A DNA stretch of 64,000 bases from an uncultured Gammaproteobacteria bacterium (GCA_964639595.1 CAZXEC010000001.1:187750-251749), one strand, 5' to 3'. Shown: positions 19,978 to 33,801, counted from the first letter of the stretch. Notes: a model not told the origin generated them from the letters alone. A program made the numbers and translations.

Positions 19978-21374
19978 ACAATTAATGGCAATGATGCCAA
20001 TTTTGGTTTTTCTCCGCTAAGAATTTCTTCAATTCTCCAAGTACCATGGGTGGGGGCATTAAAAAATCCATTCCAGGCCATTTCTGCCAAGCCTCCGGAC
20101 AAAATCCAGTCGAACAGCCACTGATGAGTATATTTAGGGTCAAGTTGGGCAATGCCTCCCCCTACCGAGAGTAGCCATTGATAATTATATAACTCCTGCG
20201 ATCCAATTGGTGGGGCCATGATAATTGGCAGCCCCAGCCCGGTATAAAATGACAGCTCGGAAGGTTTGGTCCATAGCACATCTGTTTCGTGTAAAATATG
20301 GTTAAACTGAGCAAAATATTGATGGCGTTTTGGGGTGTAAAGAATATTAATACCCCTGCCCTGCTCGTCTTTTAGCCCTAGTTGCGTGATGGTGTCCTCA
20401 AAATAAGTGTTAACATCAGCTTTAGTGCCGGCGATCAACCAGAGTCTAACCTGTTCTTGCTTGATTAACGTAGATAGACTTTGAGCAATTTGGGCACCCA
20501 GTTCCCTTTGGGCGCCGGCTCCGCCCACGGCAAAGGTAATGGTTAGGGGTCTTTCCACACTGGTCTTCTGCCAATTTTCCCCCAAGGCCCTGTCAATAGT
20601 ATCTCGATATTTTTCAGTAAATACCCCCAAAGGGTCGAGTTTTTTCAGTCTCCTCGGCAAATCCTGTTTAATGTCACGAACATCAACCCCTCCCACCAGC
20701 TCTTTTGGCAATGGGAAACCGGTCAGGTAAATATTATCCTGGTCAACACCATACAGTTTTAATCTTTCCGCCACCCGGCCATTAGGGACAAAATATTTAA
20801 TTTTACTTAGGTGGGGATCAAGTGGGGCCCAAGCCCGTGATACATCAGCATCCAGGATAGTGATGTAAATATCACCCGGATAATCAAAGTATTCAGCCGC
20901 ATAAGCAATGGTAAAAAAGGTGGCTACTAAAGGCAAAGGCTGTTTTTTGAGCCGGTCTATTAAATCTTGAAACAATCCCTTTTGGAAAGCGGCATAATTT
21001 TGCTGGAGTTGCCAGCTGGGTTTTGACAAATCTCTTTTAGGATAAAAAGGAATAATTCTCTGAAAATAATCAAAGATGACAAAGACCACCTCGCCTATTA
21101 TGGGGACAGTTTTGAATCTGGAGATGCCTTCATAAAAATGGCGGATATTATTCCAATAATTCTTGTCACTTGGGGGAATTCCCGGATAATCATTGGCAAT
21201 AATGACGCCATCATAAGCCAGATGCGATAAGTTAAAAGCGGCCCTTTCGTGTCCATAGCCCATATCCAGAGTAACTACCCAGGCCAGAGATACATTATTA
21301 TTTGGCAAGTTGGTCTTTTCCACTCTAGATAGTATAACAAGGCTCAAAGAGCATGAGAAGGGTAAATTGTTCAA
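19974..21374 (-). CDS. GT28-family glycosyltransferase (diacylglycerol glucosyl/galactosyltransferase, MGDG-synthase/UgtP-like)
   Basis: The N-terminal DMGYGHERAAF motif is the hallmark of MGD/UgtP-type glycolipid synthases. Confidence 0.6.
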   Translation of the reverse strand: MNNLPFSCSLSLVILSRVEKTNLPNNNVSLAWVVTLDMGYGHERAAFNLSHLAYDGVIIANDYPGIPPSDKNYWNNIRHFYEGISRFKTVPIIGEVVFVIFDYFQRIIPFYPKRDLSKPSWQLQQNYAAFQKGLFQDLIDRLKKQPLPLVATFFTIAYAAEYFDYPGDIYITILDADVSRAWAPLDPHLSKIKYFVPNGRVAERLKLYGVDQDNIYLTGFPLPKELVGGVDVRDIKQDLPRRLKKLDPLGVFTEKYRDTIDRALGENWQKTSVERPLTITFAVGGAGAQRELGAQIAQSLSTLIKQEQVRLWLIAGTKADVNTYFEDTITQLGLKDEQGRGINILYTPKRHQYFAQFNHILHETDVLWTKPSELSFYTGLGLPIIMAPPIGSQELYNYQWLLSVGGGIAQLDPKYTHQWLFDWILSGGLAEMAWNGFFNAPTHGTWRIEEILSGEKPKLASLPLIV

Positions 21375-21380
21375 CAGGTT

Positions 21381-21395
21381 GTTTTATGGTAAAAT
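21381..21395 (+). promoter_or_regulatory. extended -10 promoter (TGgTAAAAT) for tRNA-Glu; a second copy of TTTATGGTAAAAT lies at 21558-21570 upstream of greA
   Basis: A TGn-TAAAAT element sits 15 nt upstream of the mature tRNA 5' end; the identical 13-mer recurs upstream of greA. Confidence 0.35.
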
Positions 21396-21409
21396 TTCCT
21401 GGCTAGTAA

Positions 21410-21482
21410 GCCGCTATCGTCTAGAGGCCCAGGACGCATGGTTCTCAACCATGCAACACCGGTTCGAATCCGGTTAGCGGCA
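21410..21482 (+). tRNA. tRNA-Glu (anticodon CUC), CCA not encoded
   Basis: Cloverleaf: acceptor GCCGCTA/TAGCGGC, D-arm GTCT-AGAGGCCCA-GGAC, anticodon stem CATGG/CCATG with loop TTCTCAA, T-arm ACCGG-TTCGAAT-CCGGT, discriminator A. Confidence 0.85.
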
Positions 21483-21678
21483 CTTTTGGCAAAAAGGGGG
21501 CTTTCACAAGAGCCACTTTCGCCTCTCCATTGATCACTTGGCATTGACATGACTCTTTATGGTAAAATAACCCAATAAATTCAATCCTGCCCGGGACTGT
21601 TAAGAATATTTTTTACATAGTAATTATCCATGATGTAGGTGTAGGTAGGAGTCTTTTTAGTCCCTAAAAGAGCCTGAT

Positions 21679-22146
21679 ATGAAGAAAAGTGATAAAATAT
21701 ACCTAACTGCCCAGGGCCTAGATAAGCTCAAAGCAGAACATGACGAGCTGGTCAATATCAAACGACCGGAGGTAGCCCAACGGATTGCCCGGGCCCGGGA
21801 CTTTGGTGATCTGTCGGAAAACGCCGAATACGATGAGGCTAAAAATGAGCAGGCCTTTATTGAAGGCCGGCTAGAAGAACTGGAAACTATTCTGCGTAAT
21901 GCCCAGGTTATTGGTGATAGGCCTAAGTCTGACTTTGTGGTGATTGGGTCAACAGTAGTTGTTGAATGTGAGGGCCAGATTGATGAGTTTACTATTGTGG
22001 GTTCAGTAGAAGCCAATCCGGCCAAGAAAAGAATTTCTAATGAATCGCCGGTAGGGAAAGTACTTTTGGGTACCAAGGAAGGAGAGGAAATTTGGGTGAC
22101 AACTCCAGTGGTAAAAGTTAAATATCGTGTGTTGGAGATTAAGTAA
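21679..22146 (+). CDS. greA: transcription elongation factor GreA
   Basis: N-terminal coiled-coil with conserved acidic residues (DLSENAEYD) plus a C-terminal FKBP-like domain; 155 aa. Confidence 0.9.
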   Translation: MKKSDKIYLTAQGLDKLKAEHDELVNIKRPEVAQRIARARDFGDLSENAEYDEAKNEQAFIEGRLEELETILRNAQVIGDRPKSDFVVIGSTVVVECEGQIDEFTIVGSVEANPAKKRISNESPVGKVLLGTKEGEEIWVTTPVVKVKYRVLEIK

Positions 22147-22148
22147 AT

Positions 22149-23510
22149 ATGAAAAATGATAAATATCTGCGTGAATTCAAAGTAAATTTGACATCGCTGT
22201 CTGCTGCTGACAAAAAGCTGATGGTTAAACTGGTAGAGGTTGTCAGGTTAGTTGCTCCCTTGTATGCCCAGCAGGTCAATAGCAAGTATCCTGGCGCCAA
22301 TTTTTATCCGCATGATGCCTCCCGTGAAGAGATAGAAAAAGCAGCGCACAACAACCCGGATATTTTGAGCCCCTATACTGTGGTAGAGCGTCAAAATGGC
22401 CAGCTGGTAGCTATTCCCTATCATGTTAAATACCAAAAAGCTCTCCTGCCAATTTCCCGGGCTTTGCATGAAGCAGCAGCTCTGTCCGATGGTCAGATGA
22501 GCCGCTATTTAAAAGCCACAGCCGAGGCCCTGCTGGCTGGTGATTATGACGAGATAGATAAATATTGGTTATCTCTCAAAAACTATAATATCGATATTCT
22601 GATTGGGCCGTTTGAGAGATATGTGGATAAACTATTTTTTATTAAGCGCGCCTACCAGGGGTATCTGGGACTTGTTAATAGACAATTAACTAAATTGGCA
22701 CAAGATATCCGTGATGTTTTATATAACACTATTGAAAATAATCCTGATATCAAACACCGGATAATTCCTCTGGAAAGGACACAAGTTAGCGCAATAGACA
22801 ACATTGCCTTTTCGGGATTTTTGGCAGAATCATTGTTTTCCCAGGAACATTTTCCTTGTAATGAGGCCAATATGGAAAAATATGGAGCCAGGATCATCAT
22901 CTATGCCAGCTCCTTAAAGTACAAATTTGATAATTTATTGTATCCTATTTTCCAATCGGTTTTTGAAAAACGCTTCCAGTCAGGCTACTCGCGGGAGTTG
23001 TTGGAAAAAGCCAATTCCCTGTATGTATTAGTCAGAGGTATTGCCCAACAAATGCATCGGTATCAAGGTGCCAGAGAACGCTTGAAAGAATTATTCCCGA
23101 TCATTGATGAAGCCAACAGCCCGGTATCCGGTATACAACATTGCAAGCATTTAATTATGAAAGGGGTTATTTCTCAAAAAGAGCTGGAAGCAATTATTAT
23201 CACCCATATCTGTTGGATGTTTTCCGAATGGGTATTGATTAAAAAGACTCAAACCCGCTCTGATTACCTGCACGGGGATGCTTTGGTGTTAGGATTCTAC
23301 TTAACAGAAGGGGCCTTAAGGCTACAAGATGGCATTTCTTGGCCAAATTTTTCTAAAATATTTTTTGAAATAGAAAGATTATCTTTGATATTTGTTAGAT
23401 TAATAACCATAGGTGATTATCAGGAAGCCAAGGACTTTTTTGATAAGTATTTAAAGTTATCTGTTTTTGATCAGCTGGCAGTCAGATTAACAAAAATTAA
23501 ACCGATTTAA
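22149..23510 (+). CDS. conserved hypothetical protein, paralog A (HExxH-less member of a putative metallopeptidase-like family)
   Basis: Shares the ANFYPHDA...PY.VV...G.L...PYH motif block with the downstream paralog; the position equivalent to HExxH reads AQQMH. Confidence 0.45.
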   Translation: MKNDKYLREFKVNLTSLSAADKKLMVKLVEVVRLVAPLYAQQVNSKYPGANFYPHDASREEIEKAAHNNPDILSPYTVVERQNGQLVAIPYHVKYQKALLPISRALHEAAALSDGQMSRYLKATAEALLAGDYDEIDKYWLSLKNYNIDILIGPFERYVDKLFFIKRAYQGYLGLVNRQLTKLAQDIRDVLYNTIENNPDIKHRIIPLERTQVSAIDNIAFSGFLAESLFSQEHFPCNEANMEKYGARIIIYASSLKYKFDNLLYPIFQSVFEKRFQSGYSRELLEKANSLYVLVRGIAQQMHRYQGARERLKELFPIIDEANSPVSGIQHCKHLIMKGVISQKELEAIIITHICWMFSEWVLIKKTQTRSDYLHGDALVLGFYLTEGALRLQDGISWPNFSKIFFEIERLSLIFVRLITIGDYQEAKDFFDKYLKLSVFDQLAVRLTKIKPI

Positions 23511-23515
23511 ATTTT

Positions 23516-24934
23516 ATGGTTGAGCAACCACGATCAGAAGGCCAATCTAGACTGTCCATGCAAAAATTTATAGTACCGGAAAGGGACTTGCTACCTCGGC
23601 CGGAGGCACAGCTGTTGGCGGCTCTGGAGCAGGCAGCTGAAGCAGGTGCCCAAATTTTTGCCAGACAACAGGATACCAGATTCGCCGGGGCTAATTTTTA
23701 TCCCCATGGTGCTACCAAAGATCAAATAGCGGCAGCTGCCCAAACAAATCCTTTGATTTATGACCCCTATCATGTGGTAGTGGCAGGTAATCAAGGGGAG
23801 CTAGCTACGGTGCCTTACCATGAATATTATCGTGAACAGATCAAACCGATCTTGGCAGCTTTGAATAAGGCGGTTGGTTTTGCTGCTCGCTATGATCAGA
23901 AAATGCATTTGGCCGCCATCGGTGCAGCTTTGCAAAAAGGCAACCACGAAGGAGCGGTTGAGGCTTGGTTATCTATGGATCCCGAACCCAAGGTTTGTGC
24001 CGTCATTGGGTTTTATGATCGCTATACGGACGGACTGTTTAATAGAAAATATGCCTTTGAAGCCTGGGTGGGAATTTTGGACGAAGATACTACTCAAACC
24101 TGCCAGTCAAGGGTAGATGAAATTATTGATGTTTGGCGAAAAAGAGGCTTAAAGCCTGCTGATATGGCAGTACCCAAAATCAGGGTGAGGGTAGATAGGA
24201 CCACTATTTTCTCCGGTCAAGCTGCCCTTTACGATTGGGGAGCCAATAATTTACCGTGCCAGAGACAGTGGAGAGAAAGATATGGTTCAAAATTTGTCAT
24301 TTTTGAGTCTAACTTTGTGGACAAAATGGTTTTTGGCCGTATTCCATTACTTGGGCAGACAGTAGATAAGGATTTTACTGATGCTGATATAGAGCAAATT
24401 TTTGAAGCAGCCCTGCTGAATTATCTGGGACACGAACCCAGCCATGCTTTTATTCGTCGGCCTCAAGATGAGGAAAGACTGGGTGGGGAATACGCTATGT
24501 TTAGTGAACTTTACTGCACTGCCCTGGGAATGTGGCTAGCCTTAGATCTAGATATAGATGATCAACTCAAAGATTCTGTTTTGGCCATGCATTTTGCTGC
24601 TACCGCTGATGACAAAATCAGTTTTGAAACTAAGGGTACCAGAAGAGAATATGCTGAAGCCGATCTGGTTATTTTTAATTTTTTGAGAGAAAAAAAATTA
24701 ATTACTATACACGATGGCAGGATTAGTTGGAAGAATTGGCGTGAGTTGCAGCAGGCCTTAGGCGAATTAGTCCATATTTTAGAGCAAATCGCCAGTGCTG
24801 GTGACCAAGATGATGTTTTAAAATTACAGGATCAGTATGGCAGCAAAACTATCCTAGATCGACTTAGTGTTTTTAAATCCAGCCACAAGGGGCCAAAAAC
24901 ATCCAAACCGCTTAATCCTTTACTGGTGTCATAA
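23516..24934 (+). CDS. conserved hypothetical protein, paralog B with HExxH (GHEPSHAF) motif - putative zinc metallopeptidase
   Basis: ANFYPHGA...PYHVV...PYHEYY block and a HEPSH zinc-binding motif with a downstream Glu (EYAMFSE). Confidence 0.45.
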   Translation: MVEQPRSEGQSRLSMQKFIVPERDLLPRPEAQLLAALEQAAEAGAQIFARQQDTRFAGANFYPHGATKDQIAAAAQTNPLIYDPYHVVVAGNQGELATVPYHEYYREQIKPILAALNKAVGFAARYDQKMHLAAIGAALQKGNHEGAVEAWLSMDPEPKVCAVIGFYDRYTDGLFNRKYAFEAWVGILDEDTTQTCQSRVDEIIDVWRKRGLKPADMAVPKIRVRVDRTTIFSGQAALYDWGANNLPCQRQWRERYGSKFVIFESNFVDKMVFGRIPLLGQTVDKDFTDADIEQIFEAALLNYLGHEPSHAFIRRPQDEERLGGEYAMFSELYCTALGMWLALDLDIDDQLKDSVLAMHFAATADDKISFETKGTRREYAEADLVIFNFLREKKLITIHDGRISWKNWRELQQALGELVHILEQIASAGDQDDVLKLQDQYGSKTILDRLSVFKSSHKGPKTSKPLNPLLVS

Positions 24935-24985
24935 TTCCTATTGAGCCAGATTGTAAACAAATGAACGATTTCGTATACTAGCCTC

Positions 24986-26458
24986 ATGGAACCACTAGAA
25001 GGGCTAAGGCAAGTCCGCCTGCAAAAATTAGCCGATTTAAAAAAAGCCGGTATCAGTCCTTATCCGGCCAAATTCGATAAACGACATACTATTGCCCAGG
25101 CACTGGCATCGCTTGATAAAAAGGTGACCACTGCCGGTCGGATTATGTCGCTGCGGCCGCATGGCAAAATTACTTTTGCCGATTTGCGCGATGCCTCCGG
25201 CCAAATTCAACTATTTTTCTCTCAAGAAAACCTGACGGCTGATAGCCATCAACTGTTAACTCTCTTGGACATTGGTGATTTTTTGGGAGTATCCGGTAAA
25301 GTTTTCAAAACTAAAGCCGGTGAGATCACTATTGAGATTGACAATTTCAGCGTGCTGGCCAAGTCTTTAAGGCCCCTGCCTTCTTCTTGGTATGGCTTGA
25401 AAGATATTGAAGAGAAGTACCGGCGCCGTTATTTGGATTTGATTATTAATGATGATGCTAAAAAAACTTTTCTTTTACGCACTAAAATAGTTTCTGCAAT
25501 TCGCCGTTTTTTGGATGGTCAAGATTTTATTGAAGTAGAAACTCCCACCTTGCAATCAATTTATGGTGGTGCTAATGCCCGGCCATTTACCACCCACCAC
25601 CAGACCTTGGAGGCTGATTTTTATCTTAAAATCTCCGATGAGTTGTATCTGAAGCGTTTGATTGTGGGCGGGTGGGAAAAAGTTTATGAGATTGATCATA
25701 ATTTCCGCAATGAAGGGGTGGATCGAACTCATAATCCGGAATTTACCATGATGGAATGTTATCAAGCTTATGCTGATTACCGTGACATGATGGAGTTAAC
25801 GGAATCGCTTTATGAAACAGTTGCCAAAGATGTTCTGGGATCAACTAAAATTGACTATCAAAACCAGACAATTGACTTGAAAAAACCCTGGAAGAGACAA
25901 ACCATGGCCGAGGCAATTGGTGAGTATTTGGGGTATGACGTTAATAAAATGTCCGATGATGATTTGAAAAAGGCCATTGCAAAAGAAAAAGTGGCTTATG
26001 AAGGCGAGCCGACTTTAACCGGCGTGGCAGCCGGCTTTGTCCGCGGGATTGCCATTGCCACCCTGTTTGAGGCGGCGGAGAAAAAATTAGTTCAGCCCAC
26101 CTTTATTATTGATTTCCCCAAAGAGACAGCAGTGCTGGCCAAGCCCCACCGTGATAATCCCAGCTTGATTGAACGGTTTGAAGTCTATATTAATGGGTGG
26201 GAGATGGGTAATGCTTATTCAGAGCTGAATGATCCAATTTTGCAAAAAGCAGGTTTTGAAGAACAGGTCAAAGCCAAAAAATCCGGAGATGAAGAGGCTC
26301 ATCCGATGGATTTGGATTATGTGGAGGCTTTGGAATATGGTATGCCCCCCACCGGCGGTTTGGGTATTGGTATTGACCGGACGGTGATGTTATTGAGCAA
26401 TGCTCAAAATATCCGCGATGTGATATTATTCCCCACGCTAAAGCCGGAGAAGAAGTAA
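24986..26458 (+). CDS. lysS: lysyl-tRNA synthetase (class II)
   Basis: OB anticodon-binding domain followed by the class II core (FRNEG..., GGLGIGIDR). Confidence 0.95.
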   Translation: MEPLEGLRQVRLQKLADLKKAGISPYPAKFDKRHTIAQALASLDKKVTTAGRIMSLRPHGKITFADLRDASGQIQLFFSQENLTADSHQLLTLLDIGDFLGVSGKVFKTKAGEITIEIDNFSVLAKSLRPLPSSWYGLKDIEEKYRRRYLDLIINDDAKKTFLLRTKIVSAIRRFLDGQDFIEVETPTLQSIYGGANARPFTTHHQTLEADFYLKISDELYLKRLIVGGWEKVYEIDHNFRNEGVDRTHNPEFTMMECYQAYADYRDMMELTESLYETVAKDVLGSTKIDYQNQTIDLKKPWKRQTMAEAIGEYLGYDVNKMSDDDLKKAIAKEKVAYEGEPTLTGVAAGFVRGIAIATLFEAAEKKLVQPTFIIDFPKETAVLAKPHRDNPSLIERFEVYINGWEMGNAYSELNDPILQKAGFEEQVKAKKSGDEEAHPMDLDYVEALEYGMPPTGGLGIGIDRTVMLLSNAQNIRDVILFPTLKPEKK

Positions 26459-26487
26459 GAAGAGAAAATTAATAAGAAGGAAAGAAT

Positions 26488-27072
26488 ATGACAAGAGACG
26501 ATGCTTACAGTTTGATGACCGAGATGCTTGAGAGCAAAAATTTGCAGAAGCATGGTTTGGCGGTGGAAGCCATTATGCGCACACTATGTAAAGAATTAAG
26601 AATTAAGAATGAAGAATTAAGCGATGAGGAATTTAATGAAGAGGAATGGGCTATTGTCGGCTTGTTGCATGATGCTGATTATGAGCAGGTGGAAAAAGAT
26701 CCGCAAAAGCATACTCTGGTAATGGAAGAAAAACTTAAGCCATTGGGGGTATCGGAAAGAATTATAAATGGCATCAAGGCTCACCATCCAGGAGTCAAGT
26801 CAACCCGCGATAACTTGATGGAAAAGGCGGTTTATGCGGCAGATGAATTGTCAGGACTTATTATTGCTGTTGCTTTGGTTCATCCCGATAAAAAGTTATC
26901 GTCAATTACAGTTGAATCGGTGATGAAAAAATTTCCCCAAAAGAGCTTTGCTGCTGGCGCCAACAGGGAGCAGATTAAAACTTGTGAGGAGGAACTGGGT
27001 ATTCCTTTGGAAGAATTTGTGGGAATTGCACTTTATGCTATGCAAAGGATATCAAGCGAGCTAGGATTATAA
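26488..27072 (+). CDS. HD/HDIG-domain phosphohydrolase
   Basis: H...HD (LLHDADY)...D pattern; 194 aa. Confidence 0.6.
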   Translation: MTRDDAYSLMTEMLESKNLQKHGLAVEAIMRTLCKELRIKNEELSDEEFNEEEWAIVGLLHDADYEQVEKDPQKHTLVMEEKLKPLGVSERIINGIKAHHPGVKSTRDNLMEKAVYAADELSGLIIAVALVHPDKKLSSITVESVMKKFPQKSFAAGANREQIKTCEEELGIPLEEFVGIALYAMQRISSELGL

Positions 27073-27265
27073 CTTATGGTGGAAGAAGGTAGAAAAGGCG
27101 GAAATCTTGGCCAATATAAATGGCAGTGTGAACTGTTGAGGGCACAAGAGATGGATTTACCAATAGCATCTCAATTCAAGAATTAATTGATTTTATAGAT
27201 ATGGCCGTGAGAGGCCTAACGGGGTTATTAAATAAGGGTCAGCCTGATGATCAATAAAGATAACT

Positions 27266-27865
27266 ATGAAAATTGTAGATCTTAAAAAAATTCTCAAAGT
27301 TTTTTTAACCTTGCAGTGGACCAAGGAACTGCCCCGGCAGGGTTTTATTGCCATGGGTTTTAAGCGGAACGAAGCAGATTCAGTGGCTGCTCATTCATTT
27401 GCTACTGCCCTGCTGGCTTATTTTTTAGCTAAAGAACTGCAAAAAGAAGGATCAAAAATTAATCCGGATAAAGTTTTGAAAATGGGCCTGGTGCATGATA
27501 TCGGGGAAACTATTGTGGGAGATGTGGGCACTTTTGTCAAAGGCATGGCTGGTGGAGTGTTTAAAAATATTGAAGAAGAAGGTGTCAGAGCTCTGGTGGC
27601 CGAGCTTGATTCCAGGGATGAGATTATGGCTCTGGTTGCAGAATATAACGGGCGAAAAACAGTGGAAGCGCGGTTAGTTAAAGCAGCTGATAACCTGGAT
27701 GCGCTGGCTCAAGCCAAAGGTGTACCGGGGGCGGCTGGTGCGTTAAAATATTTTAAGGAAGTTTATCATATTACCAAGTTTGACTGGCACAAAAAAGCTG
27801 TTGATTTAATCATGAGCGACAAAGTGGAGGCGGCCCGGGAGTGGCAGAAAAAAAGTGGTCATTAA
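27266..27865 (+). CDS. HD-domain phosphohydrolase (YfbR-like 5'-nucleotidase family)
   Basis: HSFATALLAYFLA ... LVHDIGE motifs. Confidence 0.6.
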   Translation: MKIVDLKKILKVFLTLQWTKELPRQGFIAMGFKRNEADSVAAHSFATALLAYFLAKELQKEGSKINPDKVLKMGLVHDIGETIVGDVGTFVKGMAGGVFKNIEEEGVRALVAELDSRDEIMALVAEYNGRKTVEARLVKAADNLDALAQAKGVPGAAGALKYFKEVYHITKFDWHKKAVDLIMSDKVEAAREWQKKSGH

Positions 27866-27871
27866 TAGTTT

Positions 27872-29128
27872 ATGTTGGATATTAATTTTATTCGCGAAAA
27901 TATAGATCAAGTCAAAGCCGGATTGAAGAAAAAAGACCAGGATATTTTTTTAGTAGATCAGTTGCTGAAGATTGATCAAAATAGGCGTGAGCTGATCAAA
28001 ACTATTGAAGATCTTAAAGCCCAAAGAAATAAAGCTGCGCAATCAAAAAATATAAGTCTTGGTAAAAAAATTAAAGACGATTTACGGCAAAAAGAACCTG
28101 ATTTGGAAAAAGCAGAAGTTGAATTTAAAAATATCCTGCTTCAACTGCCCAACTTACCTTTGAAAAATGTTCCCGCAGGCGGAGAAGATAAAAATCAGGT
28201 TTTAAGACAAGGGGGACAACCATCCGAATTTAGTTTTACCCCGAAAGACCATGTGGAATTAGGAGAGATATTGGATATTATCGATATTGAGAGGGCCGCC
28301 AAAGTTTCCGGAACCAGATTTGCTTATTTGAAAGGTAGGGGGGTTTTGCTGGAGTTGGCGCTGGTGCAATATGCTTATGAAGTTTTAGAAAAAGCAGATT
28401 TTACTCCGATTATCCCACCGGTTTTGATAAGACAAGAAATTACTCGAGCTCTAGGTTATTGGCAAGCGGGCGGTAATGAGAATTACTATCTGGTTTCCGA
28501 TTACCAGCAAGAAGAAGAACTATCCAATCCCTTATATCTGGTGGGAACCGGAGAGCACGCGGTGGTGCCAATGCATAAGGATGAGATGTTAGATGTAAGC
28601 CAGTTACCCAAAAAATATGCCGCTTTCTCTCCCTGTTTTAGGCGTGAGGCAGGCTCTTATGGCAAAGATACCCGCGGCATCTTAAGAGTACACCAGTTTG
28701 ACAAAGTGGAGATGGTAGAATTTGTCAAAGTTGAAGATGACGAAAAAGAACGCAGAAAAATGCTCTCTATCGCGGAAAAATTAGTCCAAGGTTTACAGCT
28801 GCCGTATCAAGTGGTGCTGTTGGCAGCAGGTGATCTAGGTTTTCCCTCTGCAGAAACTATTGATATTGAAACTTGGATTCCGTCACAAAATAAATACCGG
28901 GAAACCCATTCGATATCTACCACTACTGATTTTCAAGCCAGACGATTAAATATTAAATATAAAAGTGATGGAAAATTAACGCATGTTCATATCCTAAACG
29001 GCACGGCCTTGGCGATTGGTAGGACTATCATTGCTATTTTGGAAAATTATCAGCAGGCAGACGGTTCGGTTAAAATCCCCAAAGTGCTGCAGCGATACAC
29101 CGGATTTTCCGAGATTAAACCTCAATGA
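27872..29128 (+). CDS. serS: seryl-tRNA synthetase
   Basis: N-terminal coiled-coil arm and class II motifs (FRREAGSYGKDTRGILRVHQF); 418 aa. Confidence 0.95.
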   Translation: MLDINFIRENIDQVKAGLKKKDQDIFLVDQLLKIDQNRRELIKTIEDLKAQRNKAAQSKNISLGKKIKDDLRQKEPDLEKAEVEFKNILLQLPNLPLKNVPAGGEDKNQVLRQGGQPSEFSFTPKDHVELGEILDIIDIERAAKVSGTRFAYLKGRGVLLELALVQYAYEVLEKADFTPIIPPVLIRQEITRALGYWQAGGNENYYLVSDYQQEEELSNPLYLVGTGEHAVVPMHKDEMLDVSQLPKKYAAFSPCFRREAGSYGKDTRGILRVHQFDKVEMVEFVKVEDDEKERRKMLSIAEKLVQGLQLPYQVVLLAAGDLGFPSAETIDIETWIPSQNKYRETHSISTTTDFQARRLNIKYKSDGKLTHVHILNGTALAIGRTIIAILENYQQADGSVKIPKVLQRYTGFSEIKPQ

Positions 29129-30375
29129 ATAAGAAAAATGTTTTTCTGTGGTCGCTTTACGATTTTGCCAATTCCATTGTTTCGGTAGTCTTTGCTCTTT
29201 ATTTTTCTCAATGGTTAGTGATAGACAATAAACTGCCAGATATCTGGTACAATCTCATCTTTGTAGGTACAACTGTTCTTTTACTTCTCACAGCTCCAAT
29301 AGCTGGATCTATTGCTGATAAAATTGGTCTGAAAATGCCATTTTTGACTGCCCTAACTTTAGGACAGTTTATTGCCTTGCTATTAATTGGACTCTTAACT
29401 AATTTCATTTCTATTAATTTGGGAATCTTGATACTGATTATTATTCTTTATATGTTTGCAAATTATTTTTATCAATTTCAATTTGTGTTTTATGATGCAC
29501 TTTTGTATGACATTGCGCCACTGAAAGTTCGAGGTTTTGTATCAGGCCTTGGTCAAACAGCTAATTTATTAGGGCAAATTGCCGGACTTTTAATAACATT
29601 ACCATTAATAAGCGGTGCAGTCTTTTTGATTGGTAATCCAGGACGCGCACAAACTTTTTTACCGGCAACCTTAATATTTTTCCTGTTAGCATTACCAATG
29701 TTGTTATTTTTTAAAGAACTCACAAAACCTAAGAAAATATCAATAAACTTGCTTTTTGAGTATAGAAATTCAATAAAAAATTTTCTTGCTTTATGCAGGG
29801 TTCCTGGAGTGGGAAGATATTTATTAGGTTTCTTTTTCTTTAGTGATGCCATACTTACAGCTGGTATTAATTTACCTATTTATTTGGAACAGGTATTTCA
29901 TATATCTGATCGAATCAAGGCAGTTTTGGTGGTAAGTTTCTTTTTGACTGCTGCTATTGGAGCAGCAGTTTCCGGTAAAATTGCTGATAAAATTGGGTTA
30001 AAGCGTTCACTTTTAATAATTCTTGTCTGCTGGGTATTTGCTTTTCCTGCCTTGTCAATTTTGACTAATTTTTTGCATTTTGCAGTTTTAATTCAATTTT
30101 TTGGTTTTTTATATGGGGGAACAATTATGGCAACCAGAGCAGTAATGTCTTATCTTGCTCCACCTGACAAACTTACTCAAACCTTTGGTTACTTTACCCT
30201 TTTTGAGCGTTTTTCCAGTTTCATAGGACCAGTTACATGGGGATTAATTACTTTGCTTTTGGTAAATACTGGAAGTTTGAGATATCAAATAGCGCTGGCT
30301 TCAATGACTCTTTTTGTCCTGATAGGATTTATTCTTGTAAGAAGTACCCTGTCAGATAATAAAGGTATTCAATAA
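29125..30375 (+). CDS. MFS transporter (copy 1 of tandem MFS + spermidine-synthase-like cassette)
   Basis: 12 TM helices; about 55-60% protein identity to 30858..32105; AT-rich codon usage. Confidence 0.7.
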
Positions 30376-30382
30376 AAATTTT

Positions 30383-30841
30383 ATGTTCCTGTTTGCCAAA
30401 ACTATCTATGAGGTGATGTCGCCATTCTCCGGCCGAATCCGGGTTATTGAACAAGGACATGAAAGAAGAGTCATAATCGGCGGATATGTCCAATCCAGGT
30501 GGAATTTTGCCAAAGGAGCCAAAGCCCTGCATGGCACTGTCTGGGACGGATTTTTACGCTTTCCGTTTGCTATAAAACCTGTCCCCAGAACCCTAATTTT
30601 GGGTTTGGGCGGCGGGACTGCTGTTTGCTTACTCCAAGATAAATTCGGCTCCACCTTACCGATTGTTGGAGTTGATATTGATCCGGAAATGATCACCATT
30701 GCCCACAGATTGACCACACTCAAAAATAGTGACAGAATTTTGGTTTTTGATAAGGGCAAAATAGTTCAAGAAGGGACATTTGACGAATTATCCGGCAAAA
30801 AAGGCTTATTTCAGGATTTTTTAAGACAAAGGACTCAGTAG
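30383..30841 (+). pseudogene. chimeric remnant: N-terminal 110 aa of a spermidine-synthase-like (PABS) protein fused in frame to the C-terminal ~40 aa of an ABC-transporter ATPase
   Basis: The first ~330 nt are ~97% identical to 32110..32440. After ...[11 protein letters not shown] the sequence switches to [40 protein letters not shown], a canonical ABC exporter C-terminal tail. Confidence 0.65.
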
Positions 30842-30857
30842 GCATTAAATTAGTTGT

Positions 30858-32105
30858 ATGAATAGAAAAAATATTTTTCTTTGGAGTCTTTATGATTTTG
30901 CAAATTCCATTGCAGTTATAGTTTTCTTTTTATATTTTTCTCAATGGTTAGTTATAGACAATAAAGTGCCAGATATCTGGTATAACCTGATTTTCGTAGG
31001 ATCAACAATTCTTTTACTTTTAACAGCACCTGTTGTAGGCTCAATAGCTGATAAAATTGGTGTCAGACTACCCTTTTTGAACGTTGCAACGGTTCTGATG
31101 TTTGTTTTTCTTTTAGGATCAAGTCTGTTTGCGACTTTTGCACCTGGTACAACGTTCTTTGTAGCTCTGGCAGCGATACTTTTCCTTTTTTCAAACTATT
31201 TTTACCAATTTTGTTTTACATTTTATAATGCCTTTTTACATGATCTTGCCCCTGCAAAACTGACAGGTTTTGTTTCAGGTTTAGGTCAATCTTCTAATTG
31301 GTTGGGTCAAATTACCGGTCTTTTAATTACCTTACCTTTGGCAACTGGCGCTATTTATTTAGCTGGGCATGCTGGAAGAGCCCAAACTTTTTTACCAGCC
31401 ATACTGGCCTTCTTCTTACTTGCCCTACCTATGATGTTATTTTTTAAAGAGAAACGTAAACCCGAAAAGGTTTCTATAGATCTTGGGGGAGAATATAAAA
31501 ATTCTTTACGTGATTTTATTTCTCTATGTAAACTTCCCGGAATGGGTAGATACCTTTTAGGTTATTTTTTCTTTAATGATGCACTTTTAACAGCTAGTAA
31601 CAACTTCCCTATTTTTATGGAGCAAGTATTTAAGGTCAGTGACAGTGTTAAATCCACACTTTTGCTTGGGATTTTAGCAACTTCTGCAATTGGTGCATTA
31701 ATAACTGGATGGATTTCGGATAAGGTAGGTCTTAAAAAGTCTCTGATAATTATTTTAGCTACCTGGTTAGTAATACTACCAGCCCTAAGTGTAATTACTA
31801 ATTTTACGTACTTTGTTATAGTAGCAGTAATTATGGGATTTTTCTATGGAGCAACCTGGACAGTTACAAGAGCAGTAATGAGCTACCTTACACCAAAGAA
31901 TAGACTTAATAATGCTTTTAGTTATTACACAATGGCAGAACGCTTCTCTACTTTTTTGGGCCCAGTGGTATGGGGATTAGTTACATTGCTTTTGGTAAAC
32001 GCTGGAGCTTTTCGTTATAGAATAGCAGCTCTTTCGATGACTATATTTATTTTAATTGGGTTGATAATTATAAGAAAGATTCCGTCACATACAAAAAATA
32101 TATAA
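30858..32105 (+). CDS. MFS transporter (copy 2)
   Basis: 12-TM paralog of 29125..30375. Confidence 0.7.
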   Translation: MNRKNIFLWSLYDFANSIAVIVFFLYFSQWLVIDNKVPDIWYNLIFVGSTILLLLTAPVVGSIADKIGVRLPFLNVATVLMFVFLLGSSLFATFAPGTTFFVALAAILFLFSNYFYQFCFTFYNAFLHDLAPAKLTGFVSGLGQSSNWLGQITGLLITLPLATGAIYLAGHAGRAQTFLPAILAFFLLALPMMLFFKEKRKPEKVSIDLGGEYKNSLRDFISLCKLPGMGRYLLGYFFFNDALLTASNNFPIFMEQVFKVSDSVKSTLLLGILATSAIGALITGWISDKVGLKKSLIIILATWLVILPALSVITNFTYFVIVAVIMGFFYGATWTVTRAVMSYLTPKNRLNNAFSYYTMAERFSTFLGPVVWGLVTLLLVNAGAFRYRIAALSMTIFILIGLIIIRKIPSHTKNI

Positions 32106-32109
32106 AGCT

Positions 32110-32775
32110 ATGTTTCTGTTTGCTAAAACTATCTATGAGGTGATGTCGCCATTCTCCGGCCGAATCCGGGTTATTGAACAAGGACATGAAAGAAGAGTCA
32201 TAATCGGCGGATATGTCCAGTCTAAATGGAATTTTGCCAAAGGAGCCAAAGCCCTGCATGGCACGGTCTGGGACGGATTTTTACGCTTTCCGTTTGCCAT
32301 AAAACCTGTCCCCAGAACCCTAATTTTGGGTTTGGGCGGCGGGACTGCGGCTGGCCTGCTCCAAGATAAATTTGGCTCCACCTTACCGATTATTGGAGTT
32401 GATATAGATCCGGAAATGCTCACCATTGCCCGGAATTTTTTTGGAATAAAAAATATCGAAATGATTTGCCAGGATGCTATCCTTTATGTTAAGGAGGCAA
32501 GACAACTTGGCAACGAATTTGATTTTATCATTGTTGATTTGGACAAAGGAGACTCATACCCTAAACAAGCAGAAACAGAAGAATTTATTGCCAATTGCAA
32601 AGGTTTACTCAATCCGGGCGGTGTAGTTGTTTTTAATAGAATTTATACCAGAAACAAACAAGAGCTAGTTGCCCCGTTTTTAAAAATATTAAAAAGTGTT
32701 TTTGCCAGGATTGGGTCAGTGATTATTCCCGGGCTAACCGGTTCTGATAATATTTTAATTTTTGCCCAGGTCTAG
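32110..32775 (+). CDS. spermidine-synthase-like (PABS-fold) aminopropyl/methyl-transferase; with the upstream MFS gene it forms a split version of the 'fused MFS/spermidine synthase' architecture
   Basis: [10 protein letters not shown] glycine loop, VDIDPEM (D-x-D) motif and VDLDKGD acidic motif; 4-nt gap to the MFS gene. Confidence 0.6.
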   Translation: MFLFAKTIYEVMSPFSGRIRVIEQGHERRVIIGGYVQSKWNFAKGAKALHGTVWDGFLRFPFAIKPVPRTLILGLGGGTAAGLLQDKFGSTLPIIGVDIDPEMLTIARNFFGIKNIEMICQDAILYVKEARQLGNEFDFIIVDLDKGDSYPKQAETEEFIANCKGLLNPGGVVVFNRIYTRNKQELVAPFLKILKSVFARIGSVIIPGLTGSDNILIFAQV

Positions 32776-32859: not shown

Positions 32860-33801
32860 TTACTGGCCGATGGCGCTGGGTGTGGCGCTTTGTGTGCCAG
32901 TTTCCCCCTCCAGAGGTTCCACATTAAAACCGCTTTGGGTTCGGCGCGGCGTTGGAGTAGGGGTTGATATCGGTCCGGTGATAGGTGCGGGTGTTGTTAT
33001 TTGTTTTCCAGTTGTTGGCGATGATTGAGATCCACCAAATAATTGTGAGCCAAAAGCCAGTCCTGCTCCAATCAAGCCACCAACCAGCACGATAATTATT
33101 ATTAATAAAGGTAATTTGATGGGCAGTTTCCTGCCGTCTTCCGGTTCCATTGGCGGACTTGCTGGTTGCATGGAAACCGGTATTTCTCCTGGTGGGATAG
33201 GACCAGGTGTTGCTTGGACAAATTGGTCTTGGGTGGTTGCCATGACTGGCAAAGGAGGTGCTTGAGGCGGTGAAGCTTCAGAAGACATTGGGGCAAAAGG
33301 AATGTAGCTATCTGCAGAAGTAGTCCCTTCCGGTAAAAATGTCTCGCCTTGATTTGGCTGAGTCGGAACAGGCTCGTTTTGTTCAAAACTTGGCGAAACA
33401 AGTCCTTTTTGTACCTGTTCCAGGTCAGCAGCAGGAGATGGTGGTGCTGGCTGTATTGAATCAGTGGGCGGCATAGGAGCTGAAAATGCAGGAGGTTGTA
33501 TACCTGGAGTATTACCGATGTTGTCTGCCAGTTGTTCCAGGTCTTTAGTGATAGTTTGTTCTTCTGCTGGCGTTACAGGAGCAGTCGGGGGGTTTGTTGC
33601 TGGAGCAGTTGGATTGGCCGGGTTAATCAAATCATCAGCCACAGGTTTGATAACCGATGATAAATCAGGAGGGATGGTTGGCTCTGCATTTATATCAGGT
33701 TGTGAGATAGGCGGATTATTCGGCGGCGTGGATGAGGAAACAGGGTTGCTTGGTGCACCTTGACCTGTTGGGTTGTTATCATCCATATGTAGATTTAGCA
33801 T
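32860..33801 (-). CDS. proline/threonine-rich single-pass membrane protein (hypothetical)
   Basis: Low-complexity Pro-rich N-terminal region, one TM (LPLLIIIIVLVGGLIGAGLAF), short Thr/Pro tail. Confidence 0.45.
   Translation of the reverse strand: MLNLHMDDNNPTGQGAPSNPVSSSTPPNNPPISQPDINAEPTIPPDLSSVIKPVADDLINPANPTAPATNPPTAPVTPAEEQTITKDLEQLADNIGNTPGIQPPAFSAPMPPTDSIQPAPPSPAADLEQVQKGLVSPSFEQNEPVPTQPNQGETFLPEGTTSADSYIPFAPMSSEASPPQAPPLPVMATTQDQFVQATPGPIPPGEIPVSMQPASPPMEPEDGRKLPIKLPLLIIIIVLVGGLIGAGLAFGSQLFGGSQSSPTTGKQITTPAPITGPISTPTPTPRRTQSGFNVEPLEGETGTQSATPSAIGQ

Follow-up and report, generated by a model that had tools for sequence, protein, structure and literature searches.

A microhomology recombination scar with a chimeric gene remnant downstream of serS

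What kind of event leaves two transporter genes in a row, each followed by a spermidine-synthase-like gene, such that the synthase-like genes are nearly identical at their 5' ends and the transporter genes are far apart? The question is raised by a locus in a 64,000-nt stretch of DNA recorded as an uncultured Gammaproteobacteria bacterium (GCA_964639595.1, CAZXEC010000001.1:187750-251749). The whole stretch is referred to here as the window, and coordinates are counted from its first letter. Downstream of the seryl-tRNA synthetase gene serS, a gene for a transporter of the major facilitator superfamily (MFS1) and an open reading frame (ORF) of 152 amino acids (aa) precede a second MFS gene (MFS2) and a gene for a 221-aa protein of the PABS (spermidine synthase) family. 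A preliminary description had taken these four ORFs for a tandem duplication of an MFS and PABS cassette. We find that the feature is real and was in part mis-described. The locus, which belongs to a Daviesbacteria genome, is a recombinant mosaic, produced by an ordinary kind of rearrangement, and not a duplicated cassette; it is a microhomology recombination scar with a chimeric remnant rather than a new system. Its evolutionary interest is modest, and it is of some use to annotation and assembly.

The first PABS-like ORF is a chimera

All four ORFs lie at the coordinates first reported for them, with MFS lengths of 416 and 415 aa as described. Logan contigs and loci used for comparison are labelled L with a number; among them L002, a 7-kb Logan contig, carries the closest PABS homologue (P0001, 91% aa identity). 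The elements of the locus are as follows.

27872-29128, + strand: serS (seryl-tRNA synthetase), from the ORF list; Pfam Seryl_tRNA_N and tRNA-synt_2b on the identical NCBI gene; 90.9% aa identity to the SerRS of L002
29125-30375, + strand: MFS1, UMF1/Atg22-like MFS transporter, 416 aa; PF07690 123 bits, PF11700 44 bits
30383-30841, + strand: chimeric ORF, 152 aa; PABS-like 5' fragment in frame with an ABC exporter 3' remnant
30383-30688, + strand: PABS-like 5' fragment, codons 1-102; repeat copy of 32110-32415 with 16/306 differences
30689-30704, + strand: recombination junction, 16-nt microhomology ATGATCACCATTGCCC (peptide M-I-T-I-A), from three-way alignments
30705-30841, + strand: remnant of the 3' end of a YwjA/MsbA-type ABC exporter gene, beginning at the H-loop (HRL...) and running to its stop codon
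30858-32105, + strand: MFS2, UMF1/Atg22-like MFS transporter, 415 aa; PF07690 93 bits, PF11700 64 bits
32110-32775, + strand: complete PABS-like gene, 221 aa; PF01564 38 bits against a cut-off of 22.9

The near-identical repeat at the 5' ends of the PABS-like ORFs was recovered by repeat finder, alignment and blastn alike. The repeat finder reports a direct repeat of 30382-30681 and 32109-32408 at 95% identity, which chance does not explain (blastn E ~1e-145). The alignments limit it to 30382-~30704 and 32109-~32431, copy 2 being the first ~320 nt of the 221-aa gene (32110-32431). The figures of ~97% over ~330 nt given earlier thus become 95% over 306-322 nt, with an end at ~30704. In a global alignment of the two units, the MFS part reaches ~55-85% nt identity, the ~320 nt from the PABS start codon reach 92-98%, and identity drops after ~30700. 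The step at the start codon itself is abrupt, from ~65% to ~95%.

The 152-aa ORF matches no Pfam family above cut-off and shows only weak methyltransferase matches, at residues 73-127. Residues 1 to ~102 are the N-terminus of the PABS-like protein. The remainder has another source: NCBIfam models of the MsbA/HlyB type (NHLP bacteriocin exporter, glucan exporter, HlyB, MsbA and CydD) match residues 103-151 with E values down to 5e-14, at the last ~48 model positions, and 46 of 48 residues of this tail are identical to residues 539-587 of the ABC exporter encoded by L002. The ABC segment (30705-30841) is a remnant that falls short of an ABC exporter, having no Walker A or B motif, signature motif or membrane domain. 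Neither the source of the tail nor any other ABC exporter homologue was found elsewhere in the window by tblastn or blastn.

The two parts meet inside a short stretch that the PABS-like gene and the H-loop region of the ABC exporter have in common. The window reads ATGATCACCATTGCCC at 30689-30704, PABS copy 2 reads ATGCTCACCATTGCCC and the ABC gene of L002 reads ATGATAACAATTGCCC, the match to the L002 gene being ~14/16. In the translations, the "MITIA" in front of the ABC H-loop aligns with the "M(L/I)TIA" of the PABS-like protein, and the fusion is therefore in frame. Such a novel joint between unrelated sequences inside a short shared stretch is the signature of microhomology-mediated illegitimate recombination. 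The 152-aa ORF, which NCBI annotates as a hypothetical protein (MBI4039231.1), is most likely a non-functional fusion remnant. As an annotation, MBI4039231.1 should neither seed families nor be counted as a methyltransferase.

The junction recurs in other assemblies

An assembly artefact, whether two co-occurring strains joined into a chimera or a repeat resolved wrongly, is excluded as far as the assemblies allow. Contig 1 of a Candidatus Daviesbacteria assembly (JACQJB010000001.1, GCA_016198195.1) matches window positions 20383-32348 at 99.94% over 11,966 nt and carries the same array and junction. The 458-kb NCBI contig that holds the window belongs to the same species. Two Logan contigs, L014 (SRR12113424) and L015 (SRR12113384), start in copy 1, cross the junction and reach MFS2 with sequence identical to the window, so that bases specific to copy 1 are contiguous with the ABC tail and MFS2; the same junction is present in L001. 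The junction is thus identical in four assemblies or read sets (the window, GCA_016198195.1, SRR12113424 and SRR12113384). Since the similarity at the join is only 16 nt, below any assembly k-mer, the junction must exist in the reads.

What lends an artefact some plausibility is that assemblers have difficulty with the repeat. The break in GCA_016198195.1 falls within copy 2, where contig 1 ends at window position 32348 and contig 15 starts at 32230 (a 119-nt overlap), and Logan contigs stop k-1 into the repeat. These breaks, however, fall in copy 2 and at the repeat edges, away from the junction, and the same join is present even in Logan contigs built at k=31. L011 ends, and L014 starts, exactly 30 nt (k-1) from a copy-discriminating base, which indicates that both copies are present in those samples. 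Two copy-2 single-nucleotide polymorphisms (SNPs) between the two NCBI assemblies (32139 and 32196) are not copy-1 variants, so they give no sign of collapse or of ongoing conversion. We consider an artefact hardly credible; the 320-nt, 95% repeat accounts for the breakage of public assemblies of this organism at this point.

The window and the 12-kb NCBI sister contig differ by seven SNPs, five of which lie within 43 nt (23432-23474), inside an ORF at 22149-23510 (453 aa, no Pfam hit); this may be a local hypervariable or recombined patch.

The two MFS genes come from different lineages

The preliminary description had put the MFS copies at ~55-60% protein and ~80% nt identity. The protein figure holds (60.5%); in codon alignment the nucleotide figure is 64.0%, falling to 48% at third positions. 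Third-position identity within each MFS clade is 70-82%. A neighbour-joining tree built from the 45 best homologues of MFS1 places MFS1 beside P0094 (83-85% aa) and MFS2 beside P0096 and P0101 (86-87%), and dozens of MFS genes from other organisms are nearer to MFS2 (62-69%) than MFS1 is (60.5%). MFS2 shares 87% aa identity with the MFS of L002 and ~86-88% with that of L050, and the L002 protein shares 60% with MFS1. The MFS1 orthologue P0094 lies directly after serS in L009. On this tree MFS1 and MFS2 fall in different clades of UMF1/Atg22-type MFS genes and are not sisters.

Both proteins pass the Pfam cut-offs for MFS_1 (PF07690) and ATG22 (PF11700), their lengths fit proteins of ~12 transmembrane segments, and they are probably independent transporters. 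They share this domain pair with the UMF1 (TC 2.A.1.24)/Atg22-like transporters, and homologues at JGI are named 'UMF1 family MFS transporter'; nothing in this analysis ties MFS1 or MFS2 to polyamines, or functionally to the PABS-like gene.

Trees of the two halves built separately part company: the MFS genes are not sisters, and the PABS sequences group as (L002,(copy 1,copy 2)). A tandem duplication of the pair does not survive this comparison, given MFS genes in different clades and a first PABS-like ORF that is a fragment with an ABC remnant. The units are not each other's closest relatives with even divergence, and the first does not hold a complete gene set. The earlier observation that the two halves of the unit differ greatly in age was sound, as the PABS 5' repeat is much younger than the split of MFS1 and MFS2.

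Gene content downstream of serS varies among relatives

Gene order in related contigs identifies the gene from which the remnant derives. L002 has the order HD, serS, ABC exporter (590 aa, with ABC_membrane and ABC_tran), MFS (414 aa), PABS (221 aa), a minus-strand ORF and secA, and is ~84-89% identical to the window in nucleotides on both flanks.

L002 1765-3537: YwjA-like ABC exporter gene of L002, a relative of the gene that gave rise to the window remnant

Set against this arrangement, the window has lost ABC codons 1-538 and has in their place MFS1 and PABS codons 1 to ~102, with serS as the conserved left anchor of a variable locus. Other relatives differ again, and in other Daviesbacteria each MFS type is found on its own directly after serS. 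L009 (GCA_964514205.1) has HD, serS and an MFS1-type gene that overlaps serS by the same ATGA; a small membrane ORF comes next. L050 (SRR22387919) has serS, an MFS2-type gene, a small ORF, a minus-strand ORF and secA, with neither ABC nor PABS. In L052 serS is followed by ABC with the same 1-nt overlap as in L002, and then by a methyltransferase-like ORF (L052 8767-9363) that is neither MFS nor PABS by BLAST; it is another variant of the variable slot.

The MFS genes of L050 and L002 are 91% identical in nucleotides and 93% in amino acids, and the serS and secA products of L050 share only ~61% aa identity with those of the window. A close MFS gene beside distant neighbours indicates that MFS genes have been exchanged between lineages at this site.

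The serS gene has a history of its own. SerRS identity is only 43-46% aa between window or L002 on one side and L009 (684-1916) or L052 (5769-7001) on the other, and 45% between L009 and the window. Despite this, the HD_3 protein upstream is 83% identical (window against L009), the ABC exporter 80% and MFS1 84%. The pattern suggests two serS types, arising through xenologous replacement or from a recombination boundary at serS. Among the relatives, each type is found upstream of MFS1 and upstream of ABC, in all four combinations, which indicates recombination at the locus. Sliding identity across serS between the window and L002 showed no break point inside the gene.

The gap between 45% for serS and 84% for MFS1 in L009 had raised the idea that MFS1 was gained from a very distant lineage. 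We dropped it, because HD_3 at 83% makes serS the outlier; MFS1 in L009 may be an ordinary orthologue. For L050 the mismatch between MFS (88-93%) and the flanking serS and secA (~61%) holds good.

A small predicted membrane ORF of ~90 aa follows the MFS gene in L009 (3195-3341) and L050 (2731-3003), with the pattern MxTxxxLExExxxIKxRNxRVETEKxWETSWTRR…, and is absent from the window locus. In a different phylum of the candidate phyla radiation (CPR), a Saccharibacteria metagenome-assembled genome (CAYHSQ010000002.1; L018 4492-7215) has a UMF1-type MFS gene 244 nt downstream of serS, and the serS-MFS neighbourhood may be more widespread than the MFS-PABS one.

Both halves of the fusion were recently under selection

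Substitutions in the repeat and in the ABC tail bear on the age of the fusion. Over the first 306 nt, copy 1 and copy 2 differ at 16 sites, copy 1 and L002 at 26, and copy 2 and L002 at 25, hence the topology (L002,(copy 1,copy 2)). Polarized with L002, the derived codon changes number four synonymous and two non-synonymous in copy 1, and the same in copy 2; two further synonymous sites differ among all three sequences. Between the ABC tail and L002 there are 12 codon differences, 10 synonymous and 2 non-synonymous. Random mutation yields about three non-synonymous changes for each synonymous one. The predominance of synonymous changes in both halves indicates that both were under purifying selection, in working genes, for most of the time since divergence. 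The fusion is recent, both halves having belonged to working genes until not long ago.

These counts argue against a PABS fragment duplicated long ago as a dead piece, and the 5% difference between the copies argues against very recent conversion. The suggestion of recent gene conversion, or of a re-duplication of the PABS part alone, is weakened: the copies stand 5% apart, derived changes are spread evenly over the two branches and those on the fragment branch are mostly synonymous.

A proposed crossover between two haplotypes is the best explanation of the locus as a whole

The best explanation for the locus as a whole, and one to which we give about an even chance of being right, is a single illegitimate crossover by which two haplotypes of the variable region that follows serS were joined. 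Haplotype A would have had the order serS-MFS1-PABS and haplotype B the order serS-ABC-MFS2-PABS, the latter being present in relatives of the window. One microhomology-mediated illegitimate crossover would have joined A to B at the 16-nt stretch. DNA uptake followed by homology-facilitated illegitimate recombination is a possible route: homology in serS, or in the PABS-like gene and what lies downstream of it, would hold one end of the imported DNA in place, and the microhomology would provide the joint at the other. Either haplotype could have been resident. The event would have removed the ABC exporter, kept MFS1, MFS2 and one intact PABS-like gene, and left the in-frame 152-aa fusion. Haplotype A is expected to contain a joint between a copy-1-type PABS 5' part and the PABS 3' part, ...GAAATGATCACCATTGCCCGGAAT..., with the copy-1 variants R39, V81 and C82.

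Processes of this kind have reportedly been described before. Homology-facilitated illegitimate recombination is said to occur in naturally competent species and in E. coli conjugation; the window resembles it in having a joint at a short microhomology (16 nt) with conserved anchors, serS and PABS/secA, on either side, and differs in that an intragenomic deletion could produce the same structure. In the type VI secretion arrays of Vibrio cholerae, cassette displacement reportedly leaves remnants, and in the window, too, old and new cassettes stand side by side and a truncated piece of the displaced gene survives.

Several observations weigh against the crossover. No contig with haplotype A (serS, MFS1 and a complete PABS-like gene) or with a donor haplotype was found. 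The 90% PABS cluster held only the window protein, the L002 protein and one partial sequence; a scan of metagenome contigs for PABS2 gave relatives at ≤34% identity only; and a scan of genome contigs for MFS1 gave relatives at ≤55% only, a search that also missed the source genome itself. The only MFS1 orthologue with context (L009) precedes a small membrane ORF and not a PABS-like gene, and the Logan contigs with exact MFS1 (L011 and L012) end inside the repeat. All carriers of the junction are nearly identical strains and so provide no test of selection on the chimera. Substitution counts are small (binomial p ~0.02 for the fragment branch, by our own estimate). The sequence fits a one-step join, a deletion from a full tandem or the integration of a circle alike.

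A deletion within one genome is the nearest competitor, and a rather unlikely one in our view. It would start from a precursor serS-MFS1-PABS1(full)-ABC(full)-MFS2-PABS2(full), in which PABS1 and PABS2 were young paralogues or had been homogenized by conversion, and would remove ~2 kb in one microhomology-mediated step, taking the last two-thirds of PABS1 and ABC codons 1-538. Conversion between two once-complete PABS paralogues and then deletion is a related possibility. A microhomology at the junction is what either a deletion or a crossover would leave, no illegitimate event is more common in bacteria than deletion at short repeats, and the mostly synonymous changes in both halves suit two genes that were functional in one genome until the deletion. 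The tandem precursor, however, calls for an extra earlier event and was found in none of the related contigs, and the serS-ABC adjacency of L002 and L052 and the serS-MFS1 adjacency of L009 would each need separate precise losses.

Duplication in situ, as first proposed, asks for more still. In that account an MFS and PABS tandem arose in place, the MFS copies diverged fast, and the PABS 5' ends were later converted or partly re-duplicated; a variant has the stretch between ABC codon 539 and PABS codon 107 duplicated in tandem and the resulting ABC-MFS2a later replaced by MFS1. The two units are indeed collinear and homologous over their whole length, and a duplication with end points in ABC and PABS would yield exactly this PABS|ABC junction. 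Yet MFS1 comes from another clade with its own orthologue elsewhere, with saturation at third positions (48%); upstream of the first unit one would expect a full ABC gene, and its absence requires at least one further replacement; high identity begins exactly at the PABS start codon; and a fragment dead from birth should have gained mostly non-synonymous changes, where two are seen against four to six synonymous. We regard duplication in either form as improbable.

An extension of the crossover reading is possible but doubtful: Daviesbacteria and related CPR bacteria may have a hotspot just after serS at which whole transporter genes (two UMF1-type MFS lineages and the highly conserved YwjA-like ABC exporter) are swapped between lineages through DNA uptake and recombination. 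If true, the window would preserve rare direct evidence of such a swap in an uncultivated member of the CPR, homology-facilitated illegitimate recombination at a 16-nt microhomology having knocked out an ABC exporter that is otherwise 70-80% conserved across CPR phyla. In line with this are the four combinations of serS type with MFS1 or ABC among relatives, and the L050 MFS gene, whose tree conflicts with that of its flanking genes.

The YwjA-like ABC exporter appears to be lost

The gene that the junction truncates is widely conserved: YwjA-like ABC exporters are 69-82% identical in amino acids across Daviesbacteria, Roizmanbacteria, Nomurabacteria, Kaiserbacteria, Uhrbacteria and other CPR phyla. 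No relocated copy is present in the window, and among 1159 homologues none above 82% comes from contigs of this genome. As far as the available sequence goes, this strain seems to have lost the exporter. A single microhomology join put an end to a widely conserved ABC exporter, and the locus acquired a second MFS transporter; the scar is a dated, sequence-level example of gene-content turnover in the reduced genomes of the CPR.

The PABS-like protein and the idea of a polyamine unit

The preliminary description had further proposed that each MFS and PABS pair is a split form of the 'fused MFS/spermidine synthase' architecture and a coupled unit for polyamine synthesis and transport. The 221-aa protein is predicted to have the spermidine-synthase (PABS) fold and belongs to that family at the Pfam level. 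Its AlphaFold2 model (pLDDT 88) comprises an N-terminal β-sheet domain and a Rossmann domain, and the top PDB matches by Foldseek are all spermidine or spermine synthases (TM score 0.68-0.75, ~0.72; probability 1.0). With the SpeE family (PF01564; PDB 2e5w, 7xif, 3o4f and 1inl) it shares the predicted fold, the Pfam match and the conserved Asp after β4 (D143).

It departs from SpeE in length, at only 221 aa, and in falling below every equivalog cut-off (25-54 bits against 250-304): TIGR00417 25.3/249.6, PRK00811 40.8/260 and PRK04457 53.7/304 bits. Motif I reads LGLGGGT in place of GGG(D/E)G, and Post-II reads VDLYxGDxxP instead of D-S-x-D-P. Among 41 aligned members G76-G78 are invariant and T79 nearly so, with Ser in one; 7xif has GGGEG at the aligned position. 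In SpeE structures the acidic residue of GGG(D/E)G favours decarboxylated S-adenosylmethionine (SAM) over SAM. A family of ~210-aa proteins with this fold (window, L003, L005, L028, L030 and L031) has an invariant LILGLGGG and the motifs GVDIDP, VDLYxGDxxP and FNR, and may be a SAM-dependent methyltransferase rather than a polyamine enzyme.

The C-terminal domain of METTL13 (MT13-C, PDB 5wcj) is the second-best PDB sequence match of the 221-aa protein (2e-08). It has a spermidine-synthase-like fold and yet is a SAM-dependent protein N-terminal methyltransferase (PMC6109062), so the fold alone does not imply aminopropyl transfer. The two share a GLGGG(S/T) motif I that has no acidic residue, an (I/V)DxDP Post-I and an Asp-rich Post-II. 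MT13-C differs in being part of a eukaryotic two-domain protein of low identity, and the top structural matches of the window protein are true spermidine synthases.

The fused architecture is defined by NF037959, to which the window is alike in having an MFS gene immediately upstream of a spermidine-synthase-like gene on the same strand. It differs in that the ORFs are separate, the MFS is of the UMF1/Atg22 type and the adjacency is not conserved outside the lineage; PABS2, at 32.4 bits, stays below the model cut-off of 40, and the model matches neither MFS1 nor MFS2. A literature search pairing 'fused MFS' with 'spermidine synthase' found no paper. The 4-nt gap from MFS to PABS-like ORF was correctly given for the second unit, the first having 7 nt. 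MFS-PABS adjacency is absent from the other PABS loci examined (L003-L008, L028 and L030-L032) and from 11 MFS loci of other genomes, and in other Microgenomates the PABS-like gene sits in a conserved LysRS…serS…PABS…secA neighbourhood with no MFS. From these gene orders the adjacency reads as a by-product, confined to this lineage, of cassettes landing between serS and the PABS-like gene. Neither the split fused enzyme nor the coupled unit is borne out, given the NF037959 scores, the restricted adjacency and the missing acidic residue of GGGDG; the tempting reading as a duplicated coupled polyamine module, for which there is no evidence here, should be corrected in annotation.

A functional role could also be sought in the chimera itself, as a new gene (encoding, say, a small regulatory or SAM-binding protein), or in the two pairs as a two-dose module for polyamine synthesis and export. 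The ORF is intact and in frame in all assemblies, the array resembles an operon with 7- and 16-nt spacers and no terminator-like site between genes, and the model of PABS2 has a genuine spermidine-synthase fold. The fragment nevertheless stops after β2 of the Rossmann fold, short of the Post-II catalytic region, as judged from the secondary structure of the model against the fragment length, and its ABC part has no ATPase motif. The carriers are all 99.9%-identical strains, so that intactness has no evolutionary weight. For a module, the pairing is absent from the PABS loci of other lineages examined and from the 11 MFS loci, and the acidic residue is replaced by Thr in nearly all 41 members (Ser in one). 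We consider a function of either kind very improbable.

Layout and neighbouring features

The genes serS, MFS1, the 152-aa ORF, MFS2 and the PABS-like gene are co-directional. The serS stop and the MFS1 start share 4 nt (ATGA), and the spacers that follow are 7 nt (MFS1 to the 152-aa ORF), 16 nt (to MFS2) and 4 nt (to the PABS-like ORF). By this layout MFS1, MFS2 and the intact PABS-like gene look like members of one co-directional operon. Rfam, tRNA and promoter/terminator scans of 27-34 kb gave nothing relevant and no terminator-like site between the genes. G+C content is 0.35-0.37 over both MFS genes (29001-32000) and ~0.42 elsewhere in the window, which is consistent with membrane-protein composition, a separate origin of the cassettes, or both.

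Beyond the PABS-like gene lies one further ORF, and secA comes next.

32860-33801, - strand: proline/threonine-rich ORF, 313 aa; no Pfam hit; C-terminal hydrophobic segment; between the PABS-like gene and secA

Its counterpart is 245 aa in L002 and 288 aa in L050, and this variation in length at the same position points to a fast-evolving surface or membrane protein.

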